DNA of 20,000 nucleotides. Source: an uncultured virus (IMG/VR IMGVR_UViG_3300030109_004479). Its lineage: Duplodnaviria > Heunggongvirae > Uroviricota > Caudoviricetes. A program made the translations under genes and the position numbers. Of this stretch, positions 2-20,000 are shown piece after piece (the stretch's first letter is position 1; each line of letters opens with the position of its first letter). The notes beneath the pieces were generated by a model, which saw only the letters and a program-made list of their open reading frames with translations, did no database searches and was not told the origin of the DNA. Location of the stretch: IMG/VR virus record IMGVR_UViG_3300030109_004479, positions 47,292-67,291 of that record, one strand, 5' to 3'.

Positions 2-1252
2 ACCCAAGAAGCGGGGCGAATTGGTGCAGATATTCACAAGGCAACTCTCCACACATCACCGTGGATTGACCTTATTAAACAAACAACCTTTCCAGAAGGA
101 ATGGGGTATCAATTGAGTACACTTATTTATGACCGTGCTCTTCCACTATCTCCTATTAACAAGGACTTTACTGACTCTGGTATTAGTGTAGGTGTTGACT
201 TTTCACCTATCGGATCAACTCACGGAACTGCCGCTAATGGTATGTCTGCGAATCAGCAAGACCAGACTTTGTCTATAGGTACTGAGAAAGCAAGTGTTAA
301 CACTCTTGACTTCACTAAAGTTCAAAAGAACTACAGCCTTGAGAGAGCTATCGTTGAGTCTCCACGAATTAACGTTGAGGAACTTCGCTACACTGCTCAC
401 AGAACTGAGCAACTTCGGGCTATTATGGATATTCTGAAAGAGTCTACCCGCCATTCGTGGGAAGAGCGTTACCGTGATGAGTATTCTAAGCTCTGCGACA
501 ACGTAGTTGAGTGTTCAGCCTCAGGCACAGCCACTACTACTAATCTTGAAGGAACGGTTCTTACCGCTATTAACGTAGATACTGGAAACAACGGTTGTGA
601 CATTGACGCTAATATCTCCAACAAGATTCTTGATGATATTTACTTCAAACTTGTTAGAGCTGGTGCTGGAGCAAACGCTTATGGCCGTGAGAATGGCCGC
701 CCAGTGTTCTCCCTTGTTCTTTCGTCTGAAGCATCATATCAATTGATGACTGAAGCTGGATTCCGTGATGACGTGCGTTACAATAATGCTAAAGTTTCTG
801 ACCTCATTGCTCCATTAGGAGTTGAGAAGAGCTTTAGAGGTTTCTATCACTTGGTAGATGATCTTGCACCACGTTTCTCATTTAACGCTAGTACTGACAA
901 ACTGGAAAGAATTGATCCTTACACTGTTAGTGATACTACTGGTTCTGCAACGAACAAGGTTATTGTTAACACTGCTTACGATTCTGCCGACTTTGAAGCA
1001 GCTTACGTTCTCGTTGATAACGTGATGGAGTCTTTGATTCCTGCACCAATCACTAATGCTAACGGATTATCCTTTAATCCTGTTAACTACAAAGGTGAGT
1101 TCAAGTGGACTAACATCCCTGATGTAACACTTAACCCAGACGGAACTATTGGTTTCTTCAGAGGTATTCTTGCTTCGGCTTCTAAGCCAATCAAGACTAA
1201 CTTCGGGTATGCCATATTGTTCAAGCGTACAAGTAGTACACCTGCTGCTTAA
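2..1252 (+). CDS. Probable phage major capsid protein (5'-truncated)
   Basis: The track ORF 101..1252 is open in the same frame back to position 2 (TQEAGRIGADIHKATLHTSPWIDLIKQTTFPEG-MGY...), so the true start is upstream of the window and the protein exceeds 416 aa. Size, position at the head of a structural operon, the downstream hairpin/terminator and segments such as FSLVLSSEASYQL and SFRGFYHLVDDLAPRF resemble capsid proteins of uncultured phages. The fold was not verified. Confidence 0.75.
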   Translation, partial: TQEAGRIGADIHKATLHTSPWIDLIKQTTFPEGMGYQLSTLIYDRALPLSPINKDFTDSGISVGVDFSPIGSTHGTAANGMSANQQDQTLSIGTEKASVNTLDFTKVQKNYSLERAIVESPRINVEELRYTAHRTEQLRAIMDILKESTRHSWEERYRDEYSKLCDNVVECSASGTATTTNLEGTVLTAINVDTGNNGCDIDANISNKILDDIYFKLVRAGAGANAYGRENGRPVFSLVLSSEASYQLMTEAGFRDDVRYNNAKVSDLIAPLGVEKSFRGFYHLVDDLAPRFSFNASTDKLERIDPYTVSDTTGSATNKVIVNTAYDSADFEAAYVLVDNVMESLIPAPITNANGLSFNPVNYKGEFKWTNIPDVTLNPDGTIGFFRGILASASKPIKTNFGYAILFKRTSSTPAA

Positions 1253-5130: not shown

Positions 5131-5826
5131 ATGGTAGACCCTAAGTATATAAAGCTTAGTTATTGGTTTGATCGCATCTATGTTATTAATAGACCTGACA
5201 GACCTGTTCGATTAGCTAGATTTTTTAAACATATAGAAGAACTCGGATTAGCAGAAAGGCATGAAGTTATAGTATACCCAGCAATTATGGGGAATAAAAC
5301 AACGTGCCCTCCTTATTTTTTAGCGGGAGCTGGAGCGTGGGGGTGCTTAAAATCCCATAGCAATATAATAGAAAATGCTATTATGGAGGTAGAAATTAAA
5401 GGAGAGACACACGGAATAGATAGTATTCTTATACTAGAAGATGATGTGCAGTTTATTGATAACCCTTACCAATTGATATTTAATTTTTTGTCTAATATCC
5501 CTAAAGATTGGGATCAATTATATTTGGGAGGCCAACATAGAATGAAACCGATAGCTACTGAAAACTCGGAAATTAAAAGGGTTATAAGTACTAATAGGAC
5601 GCATGCTTATGCTTTAAACAGTAAAATTTATAAAAAAGTATATGCACATATTAATAATGCTACTGACTATATAGGCAAAAAAGATTATCATGTAGATGGT
5701 CAGTTAGAAGAAGCCCACAGAAAACAGGCATGGAACGTGTATTGCCCTCCTAAATGGCTAGCTGGGCAATGTGCTAATATAAGTGATGTAAGTAACACGG
5801 AAATCCCCTATAAAATATGGGACTAG
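5131..5826 (+). CDS. Glycosyltransferase, family 25-like (GT-A fold)
   Basis: It carries the hallmark GT25 motifs in order: FDRIYVIN..DR..RL..F, GAWGCLKSH, ILILEDDVQF, DWDQLYLGG, THAYALN and HVD. Confidence 0.9.
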   Translation: MVDPKYIKLSYWFDRIYVINRPDRPVRLARFFKHIEELGLAERHEVIVYPAIMGNKTTCPPYFLAGAGAWGCLKSHSNIIENAIMEVEIKGETHGIDSILILEDDVQFIDNPYQLIFNFLSNIPKDWDQLYLGGQHRMKPIATENSEIKRVISTNRTHAYALNSKIYKKVYAHINNATDYIGKKDYHVDGQLEEAHRKQAWNVYCPPKWLAGQCANISDVSNTEIPYKIWD

Positions 5827-7238: not shown

Positions 7239-7712
7239 ATGGCTAACATAGAGATTAAGAGGGGTCAGCAGACTCAAGTAGATATAAAGTATATCCCTTC
7301 GGGGGAGACATATACTAAAAACTTTTTTAATGCTACGACTCTTGGTTCTGCTCCTAAAAAATTTAGGCATAAAGCTTCATTAGTTCTTAGGAGGAAAACA
7401 AATAATTCTGTTCAGGGAGAGGTTGTAGATACTTTAACTACGACAGACACAGCAGCGTCAGCTTCTACCTCATCTTTACAATCAACATCGGGGAGGATTA
7501 GATTTCCTAACGTAGGGGCTTCTAATACAGCTAACGCAAATATCACATTGCACTTTGATACCGCAGCTTCTGATGCGCTCCCTAACGAAAAAATTACTAT
7601 TTTTGGCGATTTAAAAATTACTGATGTTGCTCCTGACGGTAGCGAAGCAACTACTGATGAAGTTATTAACTCTTTCCGATTAACTTTTGATATAATACCA
7701 GAAATTATCTAA
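7239..7712 (+). CDS. Putative fibre attachment/adaptor protein (BppU N-terminal-like Ig fold, 157 aa)
   Basis: The pattern IEIKRG...ITLHFDTAASDALP...IFGDLKIT...TFDIIPEI resembles small Ig-like proteins found immediately before tail fibre genes. Its stop overlaps the fibre start (TAATG). Confidence 0.45.
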   Translation: MANIEIKRGQQTQVDIKYIPSGETYTKNFFNATTLGSAPKKFRHKASLVLRRKTNNSVQGEVVDTLTTTDTAASASTSSLQSTSGRIRFPNVGASNTANANITLHFDTAASDALPNEKITIFGDLKITDVAPDGSEATTDEVINSFRLTFDIIPEII

Positions 7713-10700
7713 TGGCAAATGAAGAAGCTACTGTTTCACAGACGGTCAATACGGTTACCGTTACACCACCCGCAGCAAGCACATTAAGTGTAACTTCTGC
7801 GACAGGGGGTACTTTAACATCTCCTGAAAGCACATCTAGCTTAGTTGCGGTAACAGTTGCTCCATCTACAGCAAGTTTAACAATAGAGAGCAAATTAGCC
7901 CCTAAAGATAGCCCAATATTTACAGGCACTCCTACAGCACCGACAGCTTCTGCGGGAACTAATACGACTCAGATAGCGACTACTGCGTTTGTTAATAGTG
8001 CAATTACGCTAGAGAATACTCTAGCTGAGATGGATGATGTTAACTTCACATCTCTGGGAGATAATGAGATCATACAATATGATACCTTCTCTTCTAAATG
8101 GTTAAACCAAACTTTGTCTGAAGCAGGTATTGCTTCGACATCATCTTTATCTGCACACACCAGTGCAACGAATAATCCTCATAGTGTCACCGCTACTCAA
8201 GTCAACTTAGGAAATGTTACTAATGAGTCTAAGGGCACGATGTTTACGAGTCCTACATTTACAGGGACTCCGCTTGCACCTACTGCATCAGCAGCGACTA
8301 ACAGTACACAGATAGCAACAACTGCTTATGTTACTACTGCGGTTAGTAACCTAATAGACTCAGCCCCTGCTGCACTCGATACGCTTAATGAGTTAGCAGC
8401 AGCTTTGAATGACGATGCTTCGTTCTCGACAACAGTAACTAATTCGATAGCTTTAAAAGCACCTTTAGCAAGCCCTGCTCTTACAGGAACACCTACAGCA
8501 CCTACAGCTAACGCAGGTACAGACACTACACAGATAGCAACGACAGCTTTTGTAAATGCTGCGGTAGCTTTAGAGAACACTTTAGCTGAGATGGATGACG
8601 TTACGTTGGCATCTTTAGCTGACAATGAATTACTACAATACAATTCTTCTAATAGTAAATGGGAGAATAAAACGATATCAGAAGTAGGGTTAGCTTTAGC
8701 CTCTGATTTAAGCACACACATTGGGGCTACTAACCCACATAATATTACTTTATCTGGTCTTGGAGGACTCCCCCTCGCAGGTGGCACGATGACTGGCAGC
8801 ATCGTCTTGAATGATGATGTTAAAGCTATTTTTGGAACTAGCTCCGATGGTCTTGAGATTTATCACGATGGAAGTAATTCAATAATTAAAGATTCAGGCA
8901 CAGGAGTTTTAAATATACAAGGATCTACTCAGGTTAATATCGGGGGAGTTAATGGGCAAAATGGTGTTCAGTACATCGAAGGAGGTGCTGTAAGGTTGCG
9001 TCATAACAATGTTGTAAAACTAGATACAACATCTACTGGTGTAACAATAACTGGAGAGTTGGTAGCTACCTCTTTAGACATATCTAACGATGTTGATATT
9101 GATGGTACGACAAACTTAGATGCCGTTGATATTGATGGCAACGTACAACTGGATGGAACTCTCACTGTTGGAGTAGACGATACAGGCTACGATGTTAAAT
9201 TCTTCGGAGCTACTTCTGGCAGATATCTTCTTTGGGACGAGAGTGCAGACGCTTTAAGGCTAACTGACTGGACTCCATTATATCTTGGGGCAGGTAACGA
9301 TCTTCAGTTATATCACGACGGTACTAATAGTAATATAATTAATACCAATGGAGATCTTACTATTCAGAACTCCGCAGATGATAAGGATATTATCTTCCAA
9401 TGCGACGATGGTAGTGGAGGTATAGAAACCTATTTCTATTTGGATGGTTCAGCTTCTTCAGGAAATCCGATTACTAGATTTCCTGACGATAGTCGATTAA
9501 CCTTTGGAAACAGTGGTGATTTAAAAATTTACCACAATGGAACTGACTCATACATTTCTAACAATACAGGCAGTTTAATTATTGGTGCTTTTGGTGATGA
9601 TAAAGACATTATATTTAAATCTGATGATGGCAGTGGAGGCACAGAAGTTTATTTCCGTTTAGACGGCAGTCTTTCATCAGGAAACCCATTTACTGTTTTC
9701 CCTGATAATGCAAGATTAGCTTTAGGGACTAGTGCCGACATGACGGTTTTTCATAACGGCACAGATAATTATATTATTGGAAGCACTGGAGACATGTACG
9801 TCAGACAGAGTGCTAACGATAAAGATATAATTTTTGAGTGCGATGACGGAAGCGGTGGAGTAGAAACCTATTTCCGTTTAGATGGTTCTGCTTCAAGTGG
9901 TAACCCTATCACAAATTTCCCAGATAATTCTTTTTTATCTTTTGGTTCAAGTCATGATTTTAGTATTTACCATGATTCGACTAATACATACATCGCTAAT
10001 TCAACTAACGATTTATACATTCAAAATAATGCTGACAATGCGGATATTATATTCAGGAGTGATGATGGCAGTGGTGGTGTAGCAGAATACTTCCGTTTAG
10101 ACGGTGGTGATGAAACAATTATTTTTTCAAAAACCCTTGATGTTACTGGAAGTCAAAATATAAAGCTAACTGACAATGGTAGACTTAGACTCGGAAACAG
10201 TAATGATATAGACATATATCATGGGGGTGCTAATTCTTTTTTAATAAATAGCACGGGCGATTTAACTATCAGAAATGCTGCCGACGACAAAGATATTATA
10301 TTCCAAGCAGATGACGGTAGTGGTGGAAATGAAACCTATTTTTATTTAGATGGTTCCCTAAATTCTGGCAATTATCCGATAACAGTTTTTCCAGATGATT
10401 CTTCTTTATGTTTTGGCGACGGCAGAGATTTAGTTATAGCTCATAATGGAACTGACACCAATATTAATAATTATGTTGGGCATCTTAATATTATTAATAG
10501 AGCCGATGATAAAGACATTGTTTTTTATTCCGATGATGGCAGTGGAGGCACAGAAGTTTATTTCCGTTTAGATGGCTCTTTTTCTGGAGGTGACCCATAT
10601 ACAGTATTCCCAGACAATTCAAATTTAGTTTTAGGTACAGGAGGTGATTTACATTTTAATCACGATGGTACTAACTCATCTATAAAAAATCATACAGGAG

Positions 10701-13700
10701 ATCTTCAATTTATTCAGTACGCTGACGACAAGATGATCCGTTTCTATAACGATAACGGAAGTGGCGGTACTATAGAATATCTTAGAGTTGATGGTTCAGA
10801 GGAAAGAACAGTTTTTTCAAAAGATGCAAGGTTACTAGACGATGTTAAATTAAACTTTGGGGCAAGTTCAGATCTAAAGATCTACCACGACGGGAGTAAT
10901 TCATACATTCGAGACGAAAGCGGAACAGGTGATTTAATAATCAGCACAAATGCGTTCAGATTAAAATCGGCAAATAATGGCGAGACTATGATGACTGCCT
11001 TTGAGGATGGGGCTACTAATTTGTACCATAATAATGTACAAAAGTTTGAGACAACCTCCACAGGCATAGCAATTACAGGAGGTATAACAACAACAGGAGC
11101 TTCTACTTTATCCAGCACACTTACAGTTGGAGTGGATGACACAGGACACGACGTTAAATTTTTCGGGGCTACAAGCGGTTCCTATATGCTTTGGGATGAA
11201 AGCGCAGACAAGTTAATTTTAAACGAAGCTTCTCTACAAATTGTAGACGCTACCCCTAATATTCAGCTATATGATTCTGACACAGCTAATCAATTCAATA
11301 TAGATTTCAATGGTGCTGACGTTACGTTTAAAGCTGCTACACCCGATGGAGATATTCTTTTCCAAGCTGACGACAATAGTGGTGGGTTAGAAACCTACCT
11401 TTACTTTGACGGAGGTAATAATAATATAAAGTTTTTAAAAGACACTAATTGGGTAGATAATGAAAAAGCTTTATTTGGTACTGGCAGTGATTTAAGAATA
11501 TTTCATGATAGTGCTCACAGTTATATACAGAGCAACGGTACAGGTGACCTTTATATCCAGCAATATAATGATGACAAAGACATAGTCTTTCAAGCTGATA
11601 ATGGGTCTGGGGGTTTAGATACTTATATGTTGTTGGATGGAAGTGCCACAAACATAAAAGTAGTCAAAGATTTAAATGTTAGCGATTCAGCAAAATTAAC
11701 ATTGGGCGATGGTAGTGATCTAAAGATTTACCACGACGGGACTCATAGTTATATAGATAACAGTTCAACATTTCTTATTTTAGAAAGTGACAATATAATT
11801 TTAAGGAACAACGCAGGAGACGAAGACTACGCCAAATTTTTAGGTGATGGAGCCGTTGAGTTATATCACAACGACGTAAAGAAATTCGAGACAACTGCTG
11901 CTGGGGCAACTGTAACAGGAAACCTAACGGTATCAGCCGACCTCATTATCAATGGTACTACGACTACGGTTAACAGTACGACTGTCACGATTGACGATCC
12001 TGTATTCACCCTTGGTGGTGACAGCGCACCTTCAAGTGATGACAACAAAGATAGGGGTATCGAGTTCCGTTATCACAATGGTTCTGCTGCTAAGATAGGT
12101 TTCTTTGGGTGGGACGATAGTGCTTCTGTATTTACCTTTATTGCTGATGCCTCGCCATTATCGGAAGTTTACAGTGGATCTGCTGGCAATGTGGCGTTTG
12201 GCAATATAGCAGGAACTTTAACCACAGCAGCCCAAGGCAATATCACTTCGTTAGGTACACTCACTACTCTTACTGTAGATGATATAACTATTAATGGTTC
12301 TACTATTTCTGACGGAGGTGCTTTTTCATTAGACGTTGGAGCCGATATAACATTCGATGCAGGTGGTGGTGATATCATATTAAGCGATGATGGTACAATA
12401 GTTGGTACTCTCAGCATGAATCAGAATGGTGGGGACTTTGAGATAAGGTCAAGAGTATCTGATAAAGATTTAGTATTTAAAGGTAATGATGGAGGTTCAG
12501 AGATTACTGCACTTACCATTGATATGTCAGCAGGTGGCGACATTGTCGCTGTAGATAATAAAAAGTTCAAGGGAACAACTTATTCAAGCTCTTACATAAA
12601 GTTTGAAGATGATACAAAAGTAAGTGCAAATAGTGACATTATATTTGATGTTAATGGTTCTACGGAATTAATGCGTCTTGAAGAGGGAGGTAACGTAGGT
12701 ATAGGCACTACAAGCCCTGCAAGAACTTTATCAGTTGTAAGTGGTTCTGGAATTGTTTCTACATTCACAAGCTCAACATCAGAAGCTAAAATATTTTATA
12801 AAGCTAGTGGTACATCAGGAGATTACCATGTGGGTACAGGAGCTAGTGGGGACAACTTAATACTACTCGCAGGGACTTCGGAAAGGATGCGGGTTACTTC
12901 TAGTGGTAGCGTGGGTATAGGAACTACAAGCCCAGATGAAAAACTTCATGTATTAGGAGATATATTAATAGATGCTGGAAGCGTTAACACTAATACTGGA
13001 GAACTAGCATTTACAACCCAATACAATACAGCATTTATAAAATCAAGTTACACTGATCCCGCAAACATTACAGAAACCTATTTGGCTTTCCATGCGAATA
13101 CATCGGGGGCTGCTAATGGAACTGTAGCAGAGCAAATGAGAATAGCTGGCAGTAAAGTAGGTATAGGTACAACCTCTCCACTTTCAAGACTCGATGTACG
13201 AGGAACAGTTCAAGTAGGTGTCGATGACACAGGACACGATGTAAAATTCTATGGTGCTACGAGTGGTTCCTATATGCAATGGGATGAGAGTGCCGATAAA
13301 CTGATTTTAACTGAAAGCTCTTTGCAGGTTATTGCAGGGACTCCTAACATTCAGCTATATGACTCCAGTTCAACAGGTACTTTTGATATTACTCTGGACG
13401 GGGTTAACACCACTTTAAAGAATGGAGGGACTGACGGAGATTTAATTTTCAGTTCCGATAATGGTAGTGGGGGAGAGGAAACCTATTTCTTTTTAGATGG
13501 GTCATTGAATACTGACTCGACTCCAAAAACAGTATTCCCTGACCACTCTAAGTTACTTTTCGGTTCAGGTAATTTTGATCTTAGGATTTATCATGATGCC
13601 ACAGATTCTAGAATTGAAAACAATACTGGCGATTTATACATTATAAATTATACAGATGACAAGGATATTATATTCCAATCTGACGATGGGAGCGGTGGAA

Positions 13701-15202
13701 TAGAAACCTATTTCTACTTAGATGGTTCATTATCAAGTGGAGAGCCTAATACCGTATTTCCAGATAATTCACATTTGCGTTTCGGAACTGGTGCTGATTT
13801 AGACTTCGTACATGATGGGAGTAATACTTATATAAATAACTCTACTGGCGATTTATATATTACTAACAATGCTAACGACAAAGATATTATTTTCCGAAGC
13901 GATGATGGCTCTGGTGGAAATGAAACCTATTTCTATTTAGATGGGTCAGCTTCTTCTGGCAACCCTATTACAATATTTCCAGATAACTCTTATTTGCAGT
14001 TTGGAACTGGTATGGACTTAGGCATAGTCCATAATGGAACTAATGCCCTTATTTCAAACACAACTGGAAATATTAAGTTTACTAATTATGCTGATGATGC
14101 CGATATAAAGTTTGAATGCGATGATGGTAGTGGAGGTGTTACAGAATATTTCCGTGTAGATGGGGGCGCAACAAACATTCTTTTTAGTAAAGAGTTAAGG
14201 CTACTTGATGGCGTTCAGATCCAGTTGGGTACTAGCCTTGATATGTTATTTATGCACAATGGTGCAAATGGGGCTATTACAAATAATACAGGCAACCTTA
14301 TTATTAAAAATAACAATGATGACGGGGATATAATATTTGAATGTGATGACGGGTCAGGTGGTATAGCTGAATATTTCCGTTTAGATGGTGGGTTAGGTTA
14401 TTTATTTGTTAGCAAAACTTTAAACTTTGCTGACAATGTCCCTGCAACATTTGGCCCAGCAGGTGATTTAAATATTAGGCATGATGGAACCGACTCATCA
14501 ATTACTAATAACACAGGAGACTTATACGTTCGCAATACCGCAGACGACAAAGACATTATTTTCAAAGCGGATGCTGGTGGTACTGAAGCTGAGATCATGC
14601 GGATCGATGGCTCGACAGGTCGGGTTGGAATAGGCACTACAAGCCCAGCACAAAAGCTCCATGTAGAAGGAACGGCAAGAATTACTGGTCATACCGATAT
14701 AGCAAACTCAATAGACATATCAAACACTACAAGAATTTATACAAAGTTAGGTGTAGGTAATAGTAGTTGGGTTACTCCCACCGAAGCGTTAGAAGTTAGA
14801 GGAAATGCAAGGATAGGAAGCAGTACAACTAACGGACATTTAATTGGCAGAAAAGATTATTCAGTAACCCAAACCTTCTCAACTGGCTTAACAGTCACAC
14901 TGGCCGACCATACTGCTTGTCATGTAAAAGTATTCATATCAGGTGATTGGAGCAACCATAGTTCCTTTGCTTATGTCGGTGAGTTCTTTATACAGAACAC
15001 TGGCAATGTGGGATCGTACAATGAGCCAGGAATTATACTAACAGAACACGACAATTTAACTACTGATGGGATCTTATCACAAATCGTAGATGGGACAGGG
15101 GACAGTTTCACAATTCAATTTAGAGCAAACACTAGTAGTGCAACGTCAGTATCAGGAAGACTTTGTTATCACGTAATGGGAGACGCATCAGCAGTATCAT
15201 AA
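7712..15202 (+). CDS. Giant modular tail fibre protein 1 (2496 aa)
   Basis: It has classical fibre motifs: 3x SPx[FL]TGTPxAPTA...TQIATTA[FY]V, APAALDTLNELAAALNDD, NNPHSVTATQVNLGNVTN, LPLAGGTMTG and 4x VGIGTTSP. It also has 3x VGVDDTG.DVKF.GATSG and about 15 DDGSGG-type repeats, ending in a unique C-terminal domain of about 120 aa. Confidence 0.9.
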   Translation: MANEEATVSQTVNTVTVTPPAASTLSVTSATGGTLTSPESTSSLVAVTVAPSTASLTIESKLAPKDSPIFTGTPTAPTASAGTNTTQIATTAFVNSAITLENTLAEMDDVNFTSLGDNEIIQYDTFSSKWLNQTLSEAGIASTSSLSAHTSATNNPHSVTATQVNLGNVTNESKGTMFTSPTFTGTPLAPTASAATNSTQIATTAYVTTAVSNLIDSAPAALDTLNELAAALNDDASFSTTVTNSIALKAPLASPALTGTPTAPTANAGTDTTQIATTAFVNAAVALENTLAEMDDVTLASLADNELLQYNSSNSKWENKTISEVGLALASDLSTHIGATNPHNITLSGLGGLPLAGGTMTGSIVLNDDVKAIFGTSSDGLEIYHDGSNSIIKDSGTGVLNIQGSTQVNIGGVNGQNGVQYIEGGAVRLRHNNVVKLDTTSTGVTITGELVATSLDISNDVDIDGTTNLDAVDIDGNVQLDGTLTVGVDDTGYDVKFFGATSGRYLLWDESADALRLTDWTPLYLGAGNDLQLYHDGTNSNIINTNGDLTIQNSADDKDIIFQCDDGSGGIETYFYLDGSASSGNPITRFPDDSRLTFGNSGDLKIYHNGTDSYISNNTGSLIIGAFGDDKDIIFKSDDGSGGTEVYFRLDGSLSSGNPFTVFPDNARLALGTSADMTVFHNGTDNYIIGSTGDMYVRQSANDKDIIFECDDGSGGVETYFRLDGSASSGNPITNFPDNSFLSFGSSHDFSIYHDSTNTYIANSTNDLYIQNNADNADIIFRSDDGSGGVAEYFRLDGGDETIIFSKTLDVTGSQNIKLTDNGRLRLGNSNDIDIYHGGANSFLINSTGDLTIRNAADDKDIIFQADDGSGGNETYFYLDGSLNSGNYPITVFPDDSSLCFGDGRDLVIAHNGTDTNINNYVGHLNIINRADDKDIVFYSDDGSGGTEVYFRLDGSFSGGDPYTVFPDNSNLVLGTGGDLHFNHDGTNSSIKNHTGDLQFIQYADDKMIRFYNDNGSGGTIEYLRVDGSEERTVFSKDARLLDDVKLNFGASSDLKIYHDGSNSYIRDESGTGDLIISTNAFRLKSANNGETMMTAFEDGATNLYHNNVQKFETTSTGIAITGGITTTGASTLSSTLTVGVDDTGHDVKFFGATSGSYMLWDESADKLILNEASLQIVDATPNIQLYDSDTANQFNIDFNGADVTFKAATPDGDILFQADDNSGGLETYLYFDGGNNNIKFLKDTNWVDNEKALFGTGSDLRIFHDSAHSYIQSNGTGDLYIQQYNDDKDIVFQADNGSGGLDTYMLLDGSATNIKVVKDLNVSDSAKLTLGDGSDLKIYHDGTHSYIDNSSTFLILESDNIILRNNAGDEDYAKFLGDGAVELYHNDVKKFETTAAGATVTGNLTVSADLIINGTTTTVNSTTVTIDDPVFTLGGDSAPSSDDNKDRGIEFRYHNGSAAKIGFFGWDDSASVFTFIADASPLSEVYSGSAGNVAFGNIAGTLTTAAQGNITSLGTLTTLTVDDITINGSTISDGGAFSLDVGADITFDAGGGDIILSDDGTIVGTLSMNQNGGDFEIRSRVSDKDLVFKGNDGGSEITALTIDMSAGGDIVAVDNKKFKGTTYSSSYIKFEDDTKVSANSDIIFDVNGSTELMRLEEGGNVGIGTTSPARTLSVVSGSGIVSTFTSSTSEAKIFYKASGTSGDYHVGTGASGDNLILLAGTSERMRVTSSGSVGIGTTSPDEKLHVLGDILIDAGSVNTNTGELAFTTQYNTAFIKSSYTDPANITETYLAFHANTSGAANGTVAEQMRIAGSKVGIGTTSPLSRLDVRGTVQVGVDDTGHDVKFYGATSGSYMQWDESADKLILTESSLQVIAGTPNIQLYDSSSTGTFDITLDGVNTTLKNGGTDGDLIFSSDNGSGGEETYFFLDGSLNTDSTPKTVFPDHSKLLFGSGNFDLRIYHDATDSRIENNTGDLYIINYTDDKDIIFQSDDGSGGIETYFYLDGSLSSGEPNTVFPDNSHLRFGTGADLDFVHDGSNTYINNSTGDLYITNNANDKDIIFRSDDGSGGNETYFYLDGSASSGNPITIFPDNSYLQFGTGMDLGIVHNGTNALISNTTGNIKFTNYADDADIKFECDDGSGGVTEYFRVDGGATNILFSKELRLLDGVQIQLGTSLDMLFMHNGANGAITNNTGNLIIKNNNDDGDIIFECDDGSGGIAEYFRLDGGLGYLFVSKTLNFADNVPATFGPAGDLNIRHDGTDSSITNNTGDLYVRNTADDKDIIFKADAGGTEAEIMRIDGSTGRVGIGTTSPAQKLHVEGTARITGHTDIANSIDISNTTRIYTKLGVGNSSWVTPTEALEVRGNARIGSSTTNGHLIGRKDYSVTQTFSTGLTVTLADHTACHVKVFISGDWSNHSSFAYVGEFFIQNTGNVGSYNEPGIILTEHDNLTTDGILSQIVDGTGDSFTIQFRANTSSATSVSGRLCYHVMGDASAVS
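7898..8748 (+). repeat. N-terminal fibre duplication: two ~97-aa copies (starts 7898 and 8459) around a third TGTP motif
   Basis: APKDSPIFTGTPTAPTASAGTNTTQIATTAFVNSAITLENTLAEMDDV...KWLNQTLSE...NNPHSVT aligns with APLASPALTGTPTAPTANAGTDTTQIATTAFVNAAVALENTLAEMDDV...KWENKTISE...TNPHNIT. The offset is 561 nt. Confidence 0.9.
9290..10861 (+). repeat. DDGSGG repeat array 1 (7 tandem units) in fibre 1
   Basis: D[DN]GSGG cores begin at 9404, 9623, 9842, 10061, 10310, 10532 and 10751. Spacings are 219, 219, 219, 249, 222 and 219 nt. Confidence 0.95.
11340..11707 (+). repeat. DDGSGG repeat array 2 (one partial plus one full unit) in fibre 1
   Basis: Cores DDNSGG at 11369 and DNGSGG at 11597, spacing 228 nt. 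Confidence 0.85.
13430..14617 (+). repeat. DDGSGG repeat array 3 (5 units plus one degenerate) in fibre 1
   Basis: Cores at 13457, 13682, 13901, 14120, 14345 and a degenerate DAGG at 14570. Spacings are 225, 219, 219, 225 and 225 nt. Confidence 0.92.
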
Positions 15203-15203
15203 A

Positions 15204-18200
15204 ATGGCAGACCAAACTATACCAACAATTAAAAATTTAAGAGGCAATATCGGAATCGGTACTGCGAGTCCAGCAGAAAAACTTCATGTTGATAGTGGCA
15301 ACATTCAACTTACTAATGGCAACTACATAATCTTTGATGGGCCTACACCAAAGCAAACTAAAATGCGTTCTTACTATGATGGTAGTTCAACGCATTTAGC
15401 AATGACTGTTGCTAACACATCTATTTTAGATTTAAAGGCTGATGGACTAGTTACATTTTCTGGCACTGGTGGTGGTGCATTAACCATTGGTTCTCATATA
15501 GATTTGGGGGACAGTCAAAAAGTAAGGCTTGGTGCTTCAGATGATCTACAGATCTACCACGATGGAACCCATAGTTATATAACCAATAATGTAACTGGTA
15601 GTCTTTATATACAGTCAGGAAATTCAATACAATTAGAAAGCTCCACTGGAGAAAATATGCTTGTAGCAACTGCAAATGGTGCGGTTGAATTATACCACAA
15701 CAACTCCAAGAAGTTCGAGACAACCACAGATGGAATCGCACTTCACGGTAATGGCTATATTGATTTACCTGATAACGGACGAGCTAGATTTGGGGCAGGT
15801 TATGATTTAGCAATTTATCACAGTGGTTCTCATAGTTACATAAAAGATGAAGGCACTGGAGGACTTTATCTCCAAACAAACGGCCCTGCTATTTACTTCC
15901 AAGATACTGATGGAAATCCTATGGCTCAGTTTACTGATGGTGGTCATTGTTTCTTAATGTCTGAAGGAACTACTAGGTTCCAGACATCTGCAACAGGAGC
16001 CACTATAACTGGCGACTTAACAGTTACAGGCGGTCTAACCATCAATGGCACAACGACAACCATAGACACTACTAATTTATTAGTTGAGGATAAGAACATT
16101 GTCATAGGCAATGTAGACACCCCATCTGACACAACGGCTGATGGTGGTGGTATTACCCTGAAAGGTGCTAGTGATTATACTATTGCATGGAGCAATTCAA
16201 CAGATTACTGGACATTTAACCAAGGCATTGAAATTGATGTAGGCAGTACAAATGCCAAAGGAATAAAAATTGGCAACGATAGTTATGATGCCTCAATCAT
16301 TCCAACTAGTCTTGGAGGTGTTGCTATATCATCTAGTGATCCATTTTTGTTTTATATAAATAGCGCAGTCAGGGCAACATTTACAACTGATGGTAAATTA
16401 AATTTTCCAGATAATGGTCGAGTAAGTTTAGGATCTGCAAATGATTTAGAGTTATGGCACTCTGGCAGTCATAGCTATGTAAGTAATAATGTTGGTGATT
16501 TGTTTATTTATAATAACACTAACGACGGTAATATTACATTTTATAGCGACGACGGTTCTGGAGGTGTTACAGAATATTTCCGTGTAGATGGAGGAGCTAA
16601 TCAAAATGTTTTCCCAGTAAGTGTTTTATTAAATGATGGTGTTTACTTACACATGGGCACGGGTTCTGATCTACAAATTTGGCATGATGCCACTAACTCT
16701 AACATTCAGAATAACACTGGTGATTTTTACATAACTAACACAGCGGATAACAAAGATATAATTTTTCAATGTGACGACACGTCTGGAGGAACAACTCCAT
16801 ACTTCCGTTTAGATGGAGATTCTGGATACACTAAGGCGCATAAAGAAATCCGTATGGATGATTCAATACCACTTCGTATTGGAACAGGTGGTGATGCTCG
16901 TTTCATGCACGATGGTAACAATACCTATCTAGATAATTACACAGGCGACTTTTATATTCGCCAAGCTACTGACGACAAAGACCTCATCTTCCAATGCGAC
17001 GATGGTAGTGGGGGTAATGCAACCTATTTCTTCTGTGACGGATCTCTTGCTGGAAGCACTAACTGGACAGTCTTCCCCGATAATTCAATTATAGCTATTG
17101 GATCTGGTTTAGATTTAAGGATATACCATGATGGAACACAATCTTGGGTTTATAATACAGTTGGCGATCTCAAGATAGCGAATGGCGCAGATGATAAGGA
17201 CATTATCTTCCAATGTGACGATGGTAGTGGAAGCTTTGAAACCTATTTCTTTTTAGATGGATCTAAATCTACAGGAGATCCATATACAATCTTCCCAAAC
17301 AATTCTTTCTTAGGTTTTGGAGATTCTGGAAACTTACTCATAAGGCACACTGGTCTAGGGGCTAGTATACAAAACAATGGTGGGGATATTTCCATCACAC
17401 AAAACACTAATGATGGTGATATAAGGTTTTATTGTGATGATGGCTCTGGCGGAACGGCAGAATATTTCCGTGTTGATGGGGGCGCAGAACTAACCTATTT
17501 TTCAAAATCAATTAGATTTGCCGACGGTATTCAATCGGGTTTTGGTGCTGATAATGACCTTGTTATTTACCACAACACTAGTGGTGATTCCGTTATAGAT
17601 AACTTTACTGGAGATCTTTATATTTCAAATAAAGCAGATGATAAAGATATTGTTTTCAGAAGTGATGACGGTAGTGGGGGTTATGAAACCTACTTCTTTT
17701 TAGATGGTTCCTATGGTTCCAGTGGTTATACATGGACTGTATTTCCTGATCAATCAGTTGCAGCTTTTGGAGATTCTAAAGACCTAAGAATTTATCACGC
17801 ATCCAATTCATACATTTACAACACTGTTGGAGATTTACAAATAATAAATGGTGCAGACGACAAAGATATTACTTTTCAATGCGATGATGGTAGTGGAGGA
17901 TATGAAACCTACTTCTTTTTAGATGGGTCAGTTTCAAGTGGCAACCCATATACAACCTTTCCTGACAATTCGAGACTTACATTTGGCAGTAGTCGTGACC
18001 TACAAATTATGCACAACGGTACAAATACCGTTGTTGAAAATTTAACAGGGAATTTAAGTTTTATAAATTACGCTGACGACAAGGATATAGTTTTCCAATC
18101 TGATGATGGTAGCGGTGGAGTTACCGCTTACTTAACAATAGATGGCTCTGGAGGTTATATGTGGGCTTCCAAGAGTCTTCTTTTTGCTGACAATATTTCA

Positions 18201-20000
18201 GCACAGTTTGGTAACTCTCAAGATTTATTTATTAAACACGATGGCACTGATTCAATTATTGAAAACTCCACTGGCCATATAAGAATTACAAATAAAGCTG
18301 ATGATAAAGATATTATTTTCCAGAGTGATTATGGTGATGGCACTGTTGCAACTTATTTTAGATTAGACGGCAGTTTTGGTGGGGCAGGTTACCCAACAAC
18401 TGTATTCCCTAACGACTCATCATTAAGGTTTGGTAATCAAGGGAACCTGCAAATAATCAACAATGGCACTGATTCATACATTCAAGAGAACAATGGTGAC
18501 CTTTATATAAGGCAAAGTACAGACGATAAAGATATAATTTTCCAATGTGACGATGGCTCTGGTGGTATAGAAACCTATTTCTATTTAGATGGTTCCATTA
18601 ATGGAGGTAATCCTTTTACTGTTTTTCCAGATAACGCAAGGATAGCTTTTGGAACTGGTTTAGATTTAAGATTTACTCACGATGGGAATGATAGTTTCAT
18701 AACACAAACTGGAACAGGGGATTTATACATTCAAAATATTGTAGATGACAAAGATATAATTTTCCAGTCTGATAATGGCTCTGGTGGAACAGAAACCTAC
18801 TTCTATTTAGATGGTTCAGCTTCTTCTGGTAATCCTTTTACAGTATTTCCTGACCTTAGTGAACTAGCTTTTGGAGATAGTAGAGATCTTAGAATCAAAC
18901 ATACTGGTGATAGTTATATTACTAGTTATTCGGGTAGTCTTTACCTCCGCACGGACACTACGGATGGTGATATAAGGCTTCAGTCTGACAATGGATCTGG
19001 AGGAATGACTGATTACTTAATTTGTGATGGTAGCCAAGTCACTATTCGGATGAAGAGGCAGACGAAATGGGATAACAACATACTGGCAACTTTTGGCGAT
19101 AGTGATGACCTTCAAATATACCATGACGGAACGGACAGTTATATTTCTAATACGCAGAACGAAGGAAATCTAGTAATTGAAAACGGGGCAAACGGGAAAG
19201 ATATTCTATTTAAATGCGATTCTGGCGACGGTGGTTTACATGAATATGTTCGCCTAGATGGGGGTCTGTTCCACACCATATTTTCAAAATCCACTCAACA
19301 CGCAGATGGTGCTTATGCAAAATTTGGAAATGCTGGCGATATGCAGATTGTGCATGATGGTAGCAATAATATTATACAAGCTACTGTCGGTGATTTAATC
19401 ATACAAAATACTGCGAATGATAAAGACATCATCTTTAAATCTGATGATGGCTCTGGTGGAGTAGAAACCTATTTCTTTTTAGATGGTAGTGCTTCAAGCG
19501 GTGATCCTATTACTGTTTTTCCTGATAGTTCCAAACTGTGTTTTGGAACAGATTTCGACCTTAGACTTTTTCACACTTCTGGTAATTCTTACATTGATAA
19601 TTATGTAGGCGATTTATTAATTAGAAACCAAGCAAACGATGGAAATCTTTCTTTTGTTTGTGACGATGGCTCTGGAGGTATGGCTGAATACTTCCGTCTA
19701 GATGGTGGGATAACAAATATTACCTTTAGTAAAGAACTTAAATTACTAGATGCTGTTCAAATTCAATTAGGCTCTGATGTTGATATGGTAATAACCCACA
19801 ATGGAGCTAATGGGTTCATTACTAATAATACAGGTGATCTAACTATAAAAAACAATGCAGATGATAAGGACATTATATTTCAATGTGACGATGGCTCTGG
19901 TGGTGTAGCTACTTACTTCAGTTTAGACGGATCAGGCGCACCAAATCCAAGGACAACTTTTCCAGACAACTCAACACTTCAGCTTGGAACAGGCGGTGAT
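15204..20000 (+). CDS. Giant modular tail fibre protein 2 (3'-truncated, at least 1599 codons; not in ORF track)
   Basis: ATG at 15204 (TAA-A-ATG) gives MADQTIPTIKNLRGNIGIGTASPAEKLHVDSG.... The same frame carries every repeat core and ends the window as ...FPDNSTLQLGTGGD (last codon 19998-20000). An internal in-frame stop would have produced a long track ORF, and none is listed. Confidence 0.92.
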   Translation, partial: MADQTIPTIKNLRGNIGIGTASPAEKLHVDSGNIQLTNGNYIIFDGPTPKQTKMRSYYDGSSTHLAMTVANTSILDLKADGLVTFSGTGGGALTIGSHIDLGDSQKVRLGASDDLQIYHDGTHSYITNNVTGSLYIQSGNSIQLESSTGENMLVATANGAVELYHNNSKKFETTTDGIALHGNGYIDLPDNGRARFGAGYDLAIYHSGSHSYIKDEGTGGLYLQTNGPAIYFQDTDGNPMAQFTDGGHCFLMSEGTTRFQTSATGATITGDLTVTGGLTINGTTTTIDTTNLLVEDKNIVIGNVDTPSDTTADGGGITLKGASDYTIAWSNSTDYWTFNQGIEIDVGSTNAKGIKIGNDSYDASIIPTSLGGVAISSSDPFLFYINSAVRATFTTDGKLNFPDNGRVSLGSANDLELWHSGSHSYVSNNVGDLFIYNNTNDGNITFYSDDGSGGVTEYFRVDGGANQNVFPVSVLLNDGVYLHMGTGSDLQIWHDATNSNIQNNTGDFYITNTADNKDIIFQCDDTSGGTTPYFRLDGDSGYTKAHKEIRMDDSIPLRIGTGGDARFMHDGNNTYLDNYTGDFYIRQATDDKDLIFQCDDGSGGNATYFFCDGSLAGSTNWTVFPDNSIIAIGSGLDLRIYHDGTQSWVYNTVGDLKIANGADDKDIIFQCDDGSGSFETYFFLDGSKSTGDPYTIFPNNSFLGFGDSGNLLIRHTGLGASIQNNGGDISITQNTNDGDIRFYCDDGSGGTAEYFRVDGGAELTYFSKSIRFADGIQSGFGADNDLVIYHNTSGDSVIDNFTGDLYISNKADDKDIVFRSDDGSGGYETYFFLDGSYGSSGYTWTVFPDQSVAAFGDSKDLRIYHASNSYIYNTVGDLQIINGADDKDITFQCDDGSGGYETYFFLDGSVSSGNPYTTFPDNSRLTFGSSRDLQIMHNGTNTVVENLTGNLSFINYADDKDIVFQSDDGSGGVTAYLTIDGSGGYMWASKSLLFADNISAQFGNSQDLFIKHDGTDSIIENSTGHIRITNKADDKDIIFQSDYGDGTVATYFRLDGSFGGAGYPTTVFPNDSSLRFGNQGNLQIINNGTDSYIQENNGDLYIRQSTDDKDIIFQCDDGSGGIETYFYLDGSINGGNPFTVFPDNARIAFGTGLDLRFTHDGNDSFITQTGTGDLYIQNIVDDKDIIFQSDNGSGGTETYFYLDGSASSGNPFTVFPDLSELAFGDSRDLRIKHTGDSYITSYSGSLYLRTDTTDGDIRLQSDNGSGGMTDYLICDGSQVTIRMKRQTKWDNNILATFGDSDDLQIYHDGTDSYISNTQNEGNLVIENGANGKDILFKCDSGDGGLHEYVRLDGGLFHTIFSKSTQHADGAYAKFGNAGDMQIVHDGSNNIIQATVGDLIIQNTANDKDIIFKSDDGSGGVETYFFLDGSASSGDPITVFPDSSKLCFGTDFDLRLFHTSGNSYIDNYVGDLLIRNQANDGNLSFVCDDGSGGMAEYFRLDGGITNITFSKELKLLDAVQIQLGSDVDMVITHNGANGFITNNTGDLTIKNNADDKDIIFQCDDGSGGVATYFSLDGSGAPNPRTTFPDNSTLQLGTGGD
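16434..20000 (+). repeat. DDGSGG repeat array 4 (at least 16 uninterrupted units) in fibre 2
   Basis: Cores at 16548, 16773, 16998, 17217, 17436, 17664, 17883, 18102, 18327, 18549, 18771, 18987, 19218, 19443, 19662 and 19887. Spacings are 216-231 nt, all multiples of 3, and the array runs off the window end. Confidence 0.95.

Follow-up and report, generated by a model that had tools for sequence, protein, structure and literature searches.

Repeat modules, probably recombining at a hinge, as the probable trimeric shaft of tail fibres in uncultured marine phages

The unit of 73-75 amino acids that is repeated along two fibre proteins of an uncultured marine phage is probably the module of a trimeric shaft which is rebuilt by recombination at a conserved hinge; the shaft would provide reach and the tip specificity. 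In the sequences compared, linkage between parts of neighboring units is broken at the hinge, and mosaic cassettes are observed. The window, i.e. the whole stretch of 20,000 nucleotides that was analyzed, is the final 20 kb of a single contig of 67,291 nt, and the sequencing runs containing it are marine metagenomes. The ORF and family scan of the genome gave, among others, a terminase large subunit, DNA polymerase, helicase, primase and endolysin, which indicates a tailed phage. Both fibres are encoded among the phage virion genes, are homologous to tail fibres and match PHROG tail-fibre families. Their layout is listed below (a, alpha unit; b, beta unit; coordinates are those of the window except where the genome, C1, is named).

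7712..15202, plus strand: fibre 1, 2,496 aa, with 15 cores in three groups and N-terminal PHROG tail-fibre matches
9296..10867, plus strand: first run of fibre 1, with seven units (a a a b a a b) ahead of a hinge-less half unit
9296, 9515, 9734, 9953, 10202, 10424, 10643, plus strand: unit starts of fibre 1 run 1
11297..11716, plus strand: middle of fibre 1, a beta unit reduced to its hinge, followed by a complete beta unit
13412..14600, plus strand: third run of fibre 1, a partial a unit followed by a, a, b, b and a degenerate unit
13793-14527, plus strand: the alpha-beta-beta piece of fibre 1 that was modelled
14825..15202, plus strand: fibre 1 C-terminal domain, with one homologue among the sequences collected
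15204..20000 (open), plus strand: fibre 2 in the window, the first 1,599 of 1,856 aa
16440..20000, plus strand: unbroken run of 16 units in fibre 2 (b b a a b a a b a a a b b a b a)
19922..20000, plus strand: 79-nt exact repeat of genome C1:959-1037, the merge point of two alternative five-unit paths
Genome C1:1038-1811: remainder of fibre 2, two further units and a β-sandwich tip

An earlier note, made from the letters of the window, had counted 15 cores in fibre 1 and at least 16 in fibre 2. The core profile gave the same 15 for fibre 1, namely 14 with hinges of the DDGSGG type and one degenerate (DAGGTE), and in fibre 2 the 16 cores within the window were confirmed in the order listed above. 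The units in the middle of fibre 1 correspond by this profile to residues 1196-1233 and 1260-1335, and in two fibre 1 cores, near residues 1196 and 1901, the first half is missing. In the two proteins the strict motif D[DN]GSG[GS] is found 26 times, whereas 1,000 shuffles gave 0.025 on average and never more than 1. The lengths assigned to the two subtypes hold as modal values, as 27 of 54 distinct alpha units have 73 aa and 46 of 74 beta units have 75 aa, and the scaffold and variable positions alternate, β-strand-like, as had been described. The subtypes themselves do not alternate as they were said to, since alpha/beta order is indistinguishable from random. His7 is conserved in 91-93% of units, and Cys occupies position 36 in 52% of alpha units; from these sequences, either position could be a candidate inter-chain metal site among the three chains. 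The D[DN]GSGG turn presumably resembles Dx[DN]xDG loops, from which the idea of calcium binding comes. Many fibres contain half units without the hinge and a hairpin of shorter form, 'G.DGG', which makes the fusion of two older shaft motifs a plausible origin of the unit. The C-terminal domain of fibre 1 is, by its position, the probable tip. At the start of fibre 1 (window 7712-8700) other repeats, SPxFTGTPTAPT and TTQIATTAFV, occur twice or more, and these N-terminal repeats match common tail-fibre PHROGs.

The unit had been thought to belong to no named family, and this held in all family searches: neither fibre reached any Pfam or NCBIfam cut-off, no Pfam or NCBIfam family matched more than five of 74 segments (best E 7.8e-5), and none of the 30 nearest Atlas clusters had a common Pfam family. 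T-cell receptor and other weak rows in the Pfam, NCBIfam and PDB sequence searches were rejected as chance, and single dimers match PHROGs only weakly (E 1.6e-8 or worse). A search of the openly accessible literature found no description of the unit, and the query 'DDGSGG' returned only unrelated papers. A profile of 21 alpha-beta dimers nevertheless found 11,711, 5,335 and 1,399 representatives at E≤1e-3, 1e-10 and 1e-30, respectively, of which the two weaker tiers will include hinge-less relatives. Two scans of IMG/VR gave 45 and at least 74 loci, the second from the best 80 of 504 confirmed stretches, and after removal of 12 duplicate loci the collection comprised 349 proteins with 2,350 hinges and, by the strict pattern, a maximum of 20 hinges per protein. 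A non-fibre gene in common with this genome was present in 12 of 102 loci. Other carrier loci form one group with portal PHROG 33693 and a tape measure protein and another with GroEL, terminase 6681 and portal 6547. The sole isolate carrier is Roseobacter phage CRP-207, whose gp52 has a single unit; all the other relatives are metagenome assemblies. Some carriers of the repeat end in PF13884, and the end domain 'KSFLIDHP...EGPE' (in this genome L001:1480-1808), which belongs to a conserved unnamed viral family (PHROG 17490/28536), caps many unrelated fibres. A cellular origin of the repeat was considered and found no support, as one of 70 candidate GTDB stretches was confirmed, and this one on a chimeric-looking contig. 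On that contig, assigned to a Marinimicrobia MAG, an acyl-CoA dehydrogenase gene passes abruptly into a phage fibre with two units (L050:8516-11006), a junction which is probably a mis-assembly. One further protein (P0236) is likewise labelled as coming from a Poseidoniaceae genome.

The boundary of the cassette was examined through linkage between neighboring parts of the repeat. When tails were at least 80% identical (124 pairs), an identity of 75% or more was found for the next core in 57% and for the core on the other side of the hinge in 13%, while among cores at least 80% identical (87 pairs) the preceding tail was kept in 83% and the following tail in 17%, with a background for this test of 0.5%. 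The inherited cassette thus spans from one hinge to the next, and is out of phase with the unit that the earlier note described. Third-codon identity drops off over unit positions 28-46. A distance-matched DNA test, much weaker than the protein test and based on pairs that are not independent, pointed in the same direction with 24 versus 13 of 45 pairs (discordant pairs 16 versus 5). Between random unit pairs the DNA of the hinge is 66% identical, that of the cores 50% and that of the tails 38%, and the median length of the longest exact match between two random hinges is 9 nt. Of the 31 complete cassettes of this genome 19 recur at 80% identity or more in other proteins, one of them in 10 proteins, and the recurring cassettes often stand in a different order. 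The fibre 1 orthologue L061 carries three of our cassettes, permuted, at 96-99% nucleotide identity, and at locus L087 a fibre 1 cassette is located inside its fibre 2; in this mapping of cassettes among relatives, 20 of 22 proteins were mapped. Runs of units are flanked by N-terminal parts that fall into 21 clusters (61 proteins) and by C-terminal parts that fall into 12 (50 proteins). Neighboring units are no more alike than units of different proteins (0.46 vs 0.44 for alpha, 0.35 vs 0.35 for beta). Growth by fresh tandem duplication was not seen, with 0 of 999 adjacent same-type pairs at least 70% identical; as about 2 of 999 are expected from the between-protein rate and assemblers collapse such copies, active purging of tandem twins does not follow from this count.

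Exchange also reaches across phages that are otherwise unrelated. Three cassette pairs are 97% identical and one is 88% identical between two unrelated low-GC groups with different portal families, while no pair at 80% or more was found between these two groups and the group of this genome (404 cassettes, with groups assigned from flanking genes and 183 cassettes unassigned). The loci L010 and L059, with GroEL/GroES and a different portal, share near-identical cassettes with the tape-measure phages L063, L067, L076 and L080. Both pools have about 32% GC, which suggests that the GroEL/GroES and tape-measure phages share low-GC hosts.

Fibre 2 continues at the start of the contig. The core profile detected seven additional units and a C-terminal domain encoded at the contig start, and the last 79 nt of the contig are the exact copy listed above. 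A protein listed as the window's own (P0216) runs from fibre 2 residues 1098-1599 directly into the C-terminal part, and a contig at genome-level depth seems, as read from a single joint row, to bridge this point in two sequencing runs, X1 and X2. Together these indicate that the full fibre 2 has 1,856 aa and 18 cores. The segment C1:1-958 is most likely an alternative allele of fibre 2 in which a b a b a replaces b b a b a, and its cassettes are found with 94-97% identity in two fibre 2 relatives (P0051 and P0151). The contig is lasso-shaped (genome C1:1-1037 and window 19922-20000), and if C1:1-958 is a variant allele the genome is a circle of about 66.25 kb.

Such merge points raise the question of whether the arrays are in fact stable and ancient and the apparent shuffling consists mostly of short-read chimeras of co-occurring strains. 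Short-read assemblers may mis-join strains at a common hinge and collapse identical neighbors, which would inflate the mosaics, and this contig has such a merge point in its 79-nt repeat. Exact repeats of 79, 41 and 33 nt within the genome, many partial contigs which start or stop at hinges, the contig start as an alternative path and the abrupt fibre junction on the Marinimicrobia contig all agree with this explanation. However, contigs of the runs X1 and X2 reproduce the window: of 16 listed pieces that cover the region, 14 are without a differing letter, and two of the covering pieces span several hinges, although both runs are from one study and X1 is possibly the source of this contig. 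Shared cassettes are 80-99% identical and mostly not 100%, one occurs in 10 proteins, and the median exact run at the hinge, 9 nt, is shorter than the usual assembly word lengths. A cassette found in many contexts argues for real exchange even if some chimeras are present, and we consider it very unlikely that the shuffling is mostly an artefact.

The alpha-beta-beta piece was modelled with an alignment of 74 rows. The monomer model is all β with pLDDT 95.3, and three copies score 0.93 compared with 0.00 for the best of three controls, in line with the trimeric β-structured shaft that had been proposed. Among solved pairs 20 of 30 attained the mark used for trimers, as did 1 of 23 single chains, counts which are only rough because the trimer model was made with a custom alignment and a calcium ligand, and a pass may mirror likeness to solved β-helical fibres. 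In the trimer runs contact agreement was at least 98% and partner pLDDT at least 93, with about 1,000 contacts, and the best contacts join strands across chains (85-89/94-98, 94-96/105-108, 60-62/68-70 and 212/219). The predicted assembly is a parallel, intertwined β homotrimer. Each unit would contribute about seven β-strands per chain, with two intra-chain hairpins and the other strands pairing with the neighboring chain. In the model DDGSGG is the turn of a within-chain hairpin, which would be the most conserved one, and the subtypes may diverge only after it, where beta has an extra strand and alpha a loop, probably Gly/Ser-rich and followed by a Phe-Pro strand. Confidence stays high over the alpha-beta and beta-beta junctions. 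Both subtypes are predicted to lead back to the same next core, so that any cassette may follow any other. With about seven strand levels at 4.8 Å, one unit would rise by roughly 3-4 nm, and the fibre 2 run would measure some 60 nm. Foldseek against PDB gave no match for the repeat at E≤0.001 and the best Z in a wide structural search was 5.0, which does not imply a novel fold; the weak structural rows were phage and pyocin spikes and the Bdellovibrio fibre Bd2133. No solved structure resembles the unit clearly, and its fold is thus a predicted one. In a comparison with predicted viral structures the best matches were unnamed, followed by cyanophage fibres.

The earlier note also supposed that the binary pattern of subtypes sets kinks or flexibility, which we did not find reflected in their order. 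In 593 runs there were 120 alpha-alpha neighbors, compared with 124.1±5.3 in 2,000 within-run shuffles, and 164 runs of at least six units showed 105 distinct patterns. Close relatives and orthologues arrange the same cassettes differently, many fibres consist of beta units throughout, and the two alleles of this contig, b b a b a and a b a b a, differ as well. All this speaks against a selected code for kinks or flexible joints that would determine fibre shape, an explanation for which it can be said that the tails differ in predicted secondary structure, and may therefore differ in rise and stiffness, and that alpha is always followed by another core (41 of 41 alpha-ending runs), the sole order rule that was observed. 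We regard such a code as highly improbable, and the alpha/beta order would rather be a by-product of shuffling.

Another proposal, that variable faces of the units give multivalent binding along the shaft, was likewise left without support. In its full form each cassette would be an adhesin with weak glycan binding, every fibre would carry 10-20 specificities, and shuffling would produce a host-range repertoire, similar to the segments of gp38. The dN/dS ratios were calculated from 20 alpha and 20 beta nearest-neighbor pairs. At variable positions they are 0.36 for alpha and 0.34 for beta, and at scaffold positions 0.04 and 0.09; the variable positions are under relaxed purifying selection. 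That they are constrained at all agrees with adhesin cassettes, as does their composition in alpha (17% Tyr, 9% Arg), but Tyr, Thr and Arg are usual on exposed β-sheets, and diversifying point selection at these positions was not seen in the 20 + 20 pairs. Also in favor of adhesins, distinct cassettes persist across many phages while neighbors are as unlike as units of different proteins. Complete fibres ending 46 residues past the last hinge, which leaves little room for a tip, are 4 of 52, and 5 of 52 end within 80 residues. The layout of gp38, with conserved Gly-rich motifs and variable segments (PMC3157838), is the same. Against adhesin cassettes stand the sizeable and diverse C-terminal domains of most fibres and the separate, lectin-like end domain of fibre 2. 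In the predicted model this domain is a β-sandwich of small size, and the structure most like it is the end domain of the tailspike of cyanophage Pam1 (PDB 7EEA; Z 8.6, a value that barely exceeds the level common for unrelated folds, rmsd 1.8 Å, 66 residues, 12% identity), followed by lectin-like tips (R2 pyocin, discoidin) with Z under 6.5. It has no Pfam family and no Foldseek match in PDB at E≤0.001. An S74-like chaperone was considered for this end and found no support, there being no Pfam or PDB match to one and a lectin-like fold instead. On balance adhesin cassettes seem unlikely; the units most likely form the fibre stalk, and host binding by them is purely hypothetical.

A putative major capsid protein, recognized by size and position, is encoded at window 2-1252 (genome 47224-48543). 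It has no PHROG, Pfam or annotated-phage match, and a search for the host through its relatives found none among annotated phages; 1,575 metagenomic relatives were found among 8,000 scored candidates, and these represent a large unnamed phage group. Among the virion genes shortly upstream of the fibres (window 5131-5826) lies a GT25-like glycosyltransferase (Pfam E 0.00087, below the cut-off; PHROG match glucosyltransferase), which might glycosylate virion proteins. An ORF of 5,771 aa at genome C1:18236-35551, nearly without family matches, is probably an ejection protein. No reverse transcriptase of a diversity-generating retroelement was present among the main ORFs scanned, and the 79-nt allele junction was the sole long exact repeat in the genome, where such an element would have a near-identical pair of template and variable repeats.

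Taken together, the units would be stalk modules of long homotrimeric tail fibres in which three chains are wound in parallel. A conserved hinge block recurs about every 220 nt in many co-occurring phages, and a recurring hinge of this kind would allow homologous recombination to swap, add and remove whole cassettes. Such exchange may take place between the two fibre genes, between strains and between unrelated phages, presumably by recombination during co-infection, and it would alter the length and surface of the fibre and recouple shafts to other N-terminal anchors and C-terminal tips. Specific binding would most likely be left to the tip, with the shaft giving reach. Judging by their sequences, the fibres look built from a shared library of parts, with units swapped singly among ocean phages. 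Near-identical cassettes join phages with unrelated head genes, and do not join other groups, and may for this reason mark shared host cells. It is a doubtful, more far-reaching possibility that the ocean-wide library consists of hundreds of interchangeable adhesin cassettes of 73-75 aa with their own constrained glycan-binding faces, which recombination at the hinge would link into fibres that sample many sugars over their entire length, with pools that track hosts; if true, cassette sharing would predict the host range of uncultured phages. In either case the module, widespread in metagenomes with 1,399 clusters at E≤1e-30 but found in neither Pfam nor NCBIfam, permits a direct test of whether the shaft gives reach only or binding too. 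A trimer module tolerant of order is also a natural protein rod of tunable length.

Among known fibres, the sole significant PDB sequence match was gp28 of the cyanophage P-SCSP1u (PDB 8I4M), a trimeric phage fibre, as is proposed for the unit. Residues 798-910 of gp28 resemble the first half and the tail end of the unit (profile E 1.4e-5), but the alignment is without the DDGSGG hairpin and homology does not extend over the whole unit. The gp28 fibre is described as a trimer whose distal part has no solved coordinates (PMC10575957). Related cyanophage fibres are found in PHROG 8745, 13518, 19195 and 29834. Long trimeric β-helical fibres with interchangeable tips, some with S74 chaperone ends, are described for the MATs (mosaic adhesive trimers) of Bdellovibrio, which are exported bacterial proteins with a signal peptide and a conserved N-terminal domain of about 130 aa, and whose mosaicism is described at the tip (PMC10769870). 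One of them, Bd2133 (PDB 8OND), gave the top Foldseek probability (0.60) and the longest structural alignment (143 residues) with the repeat, a match that is weak (E 0.083; Z 3.2, rmsd 14 Å). For receptor-binding proteins of Klebsiella phages, short hotspots near the N-termini have been described (bioRxiv 10.64898/2026.05.12.724579), and motifs of β-helical fibres are reported to be swapped among phages (PMC3157838). Marine fibre genes are known as variable islands with protein-specific repeats (PMC3909814; PMC1079782), in which the exchange unit is seldom visible, while here it is one module with a fixed joint. A further parallel is with the T-even distal tail fibre gp37 and adhesin gp38, where exchange takes place within or close to those Gly-rich motifs that are conserved best (Tétart 1998, cited in PMC3157838). 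The likeness to gp38, i.e. conserved Gly-rich motifs as exchange points, is an analogy only, as no search gave sequence homology to gp37/gp38. In gp38, as described there, the number and order of motifs are fixed and variable segments set host range (PMC3157838), whereas the runs of our unit are free in order and number (1-15 by the strict pattern). What sets the present case apart is that unrelated phages have one repeat in common, which is jointed at each unit and unconstrained in the number and order of its units. By this analogy, recombination at the hinge would be a known mechanism, that of T-even gp37/gp38, acting on an unnamed and widespread module.
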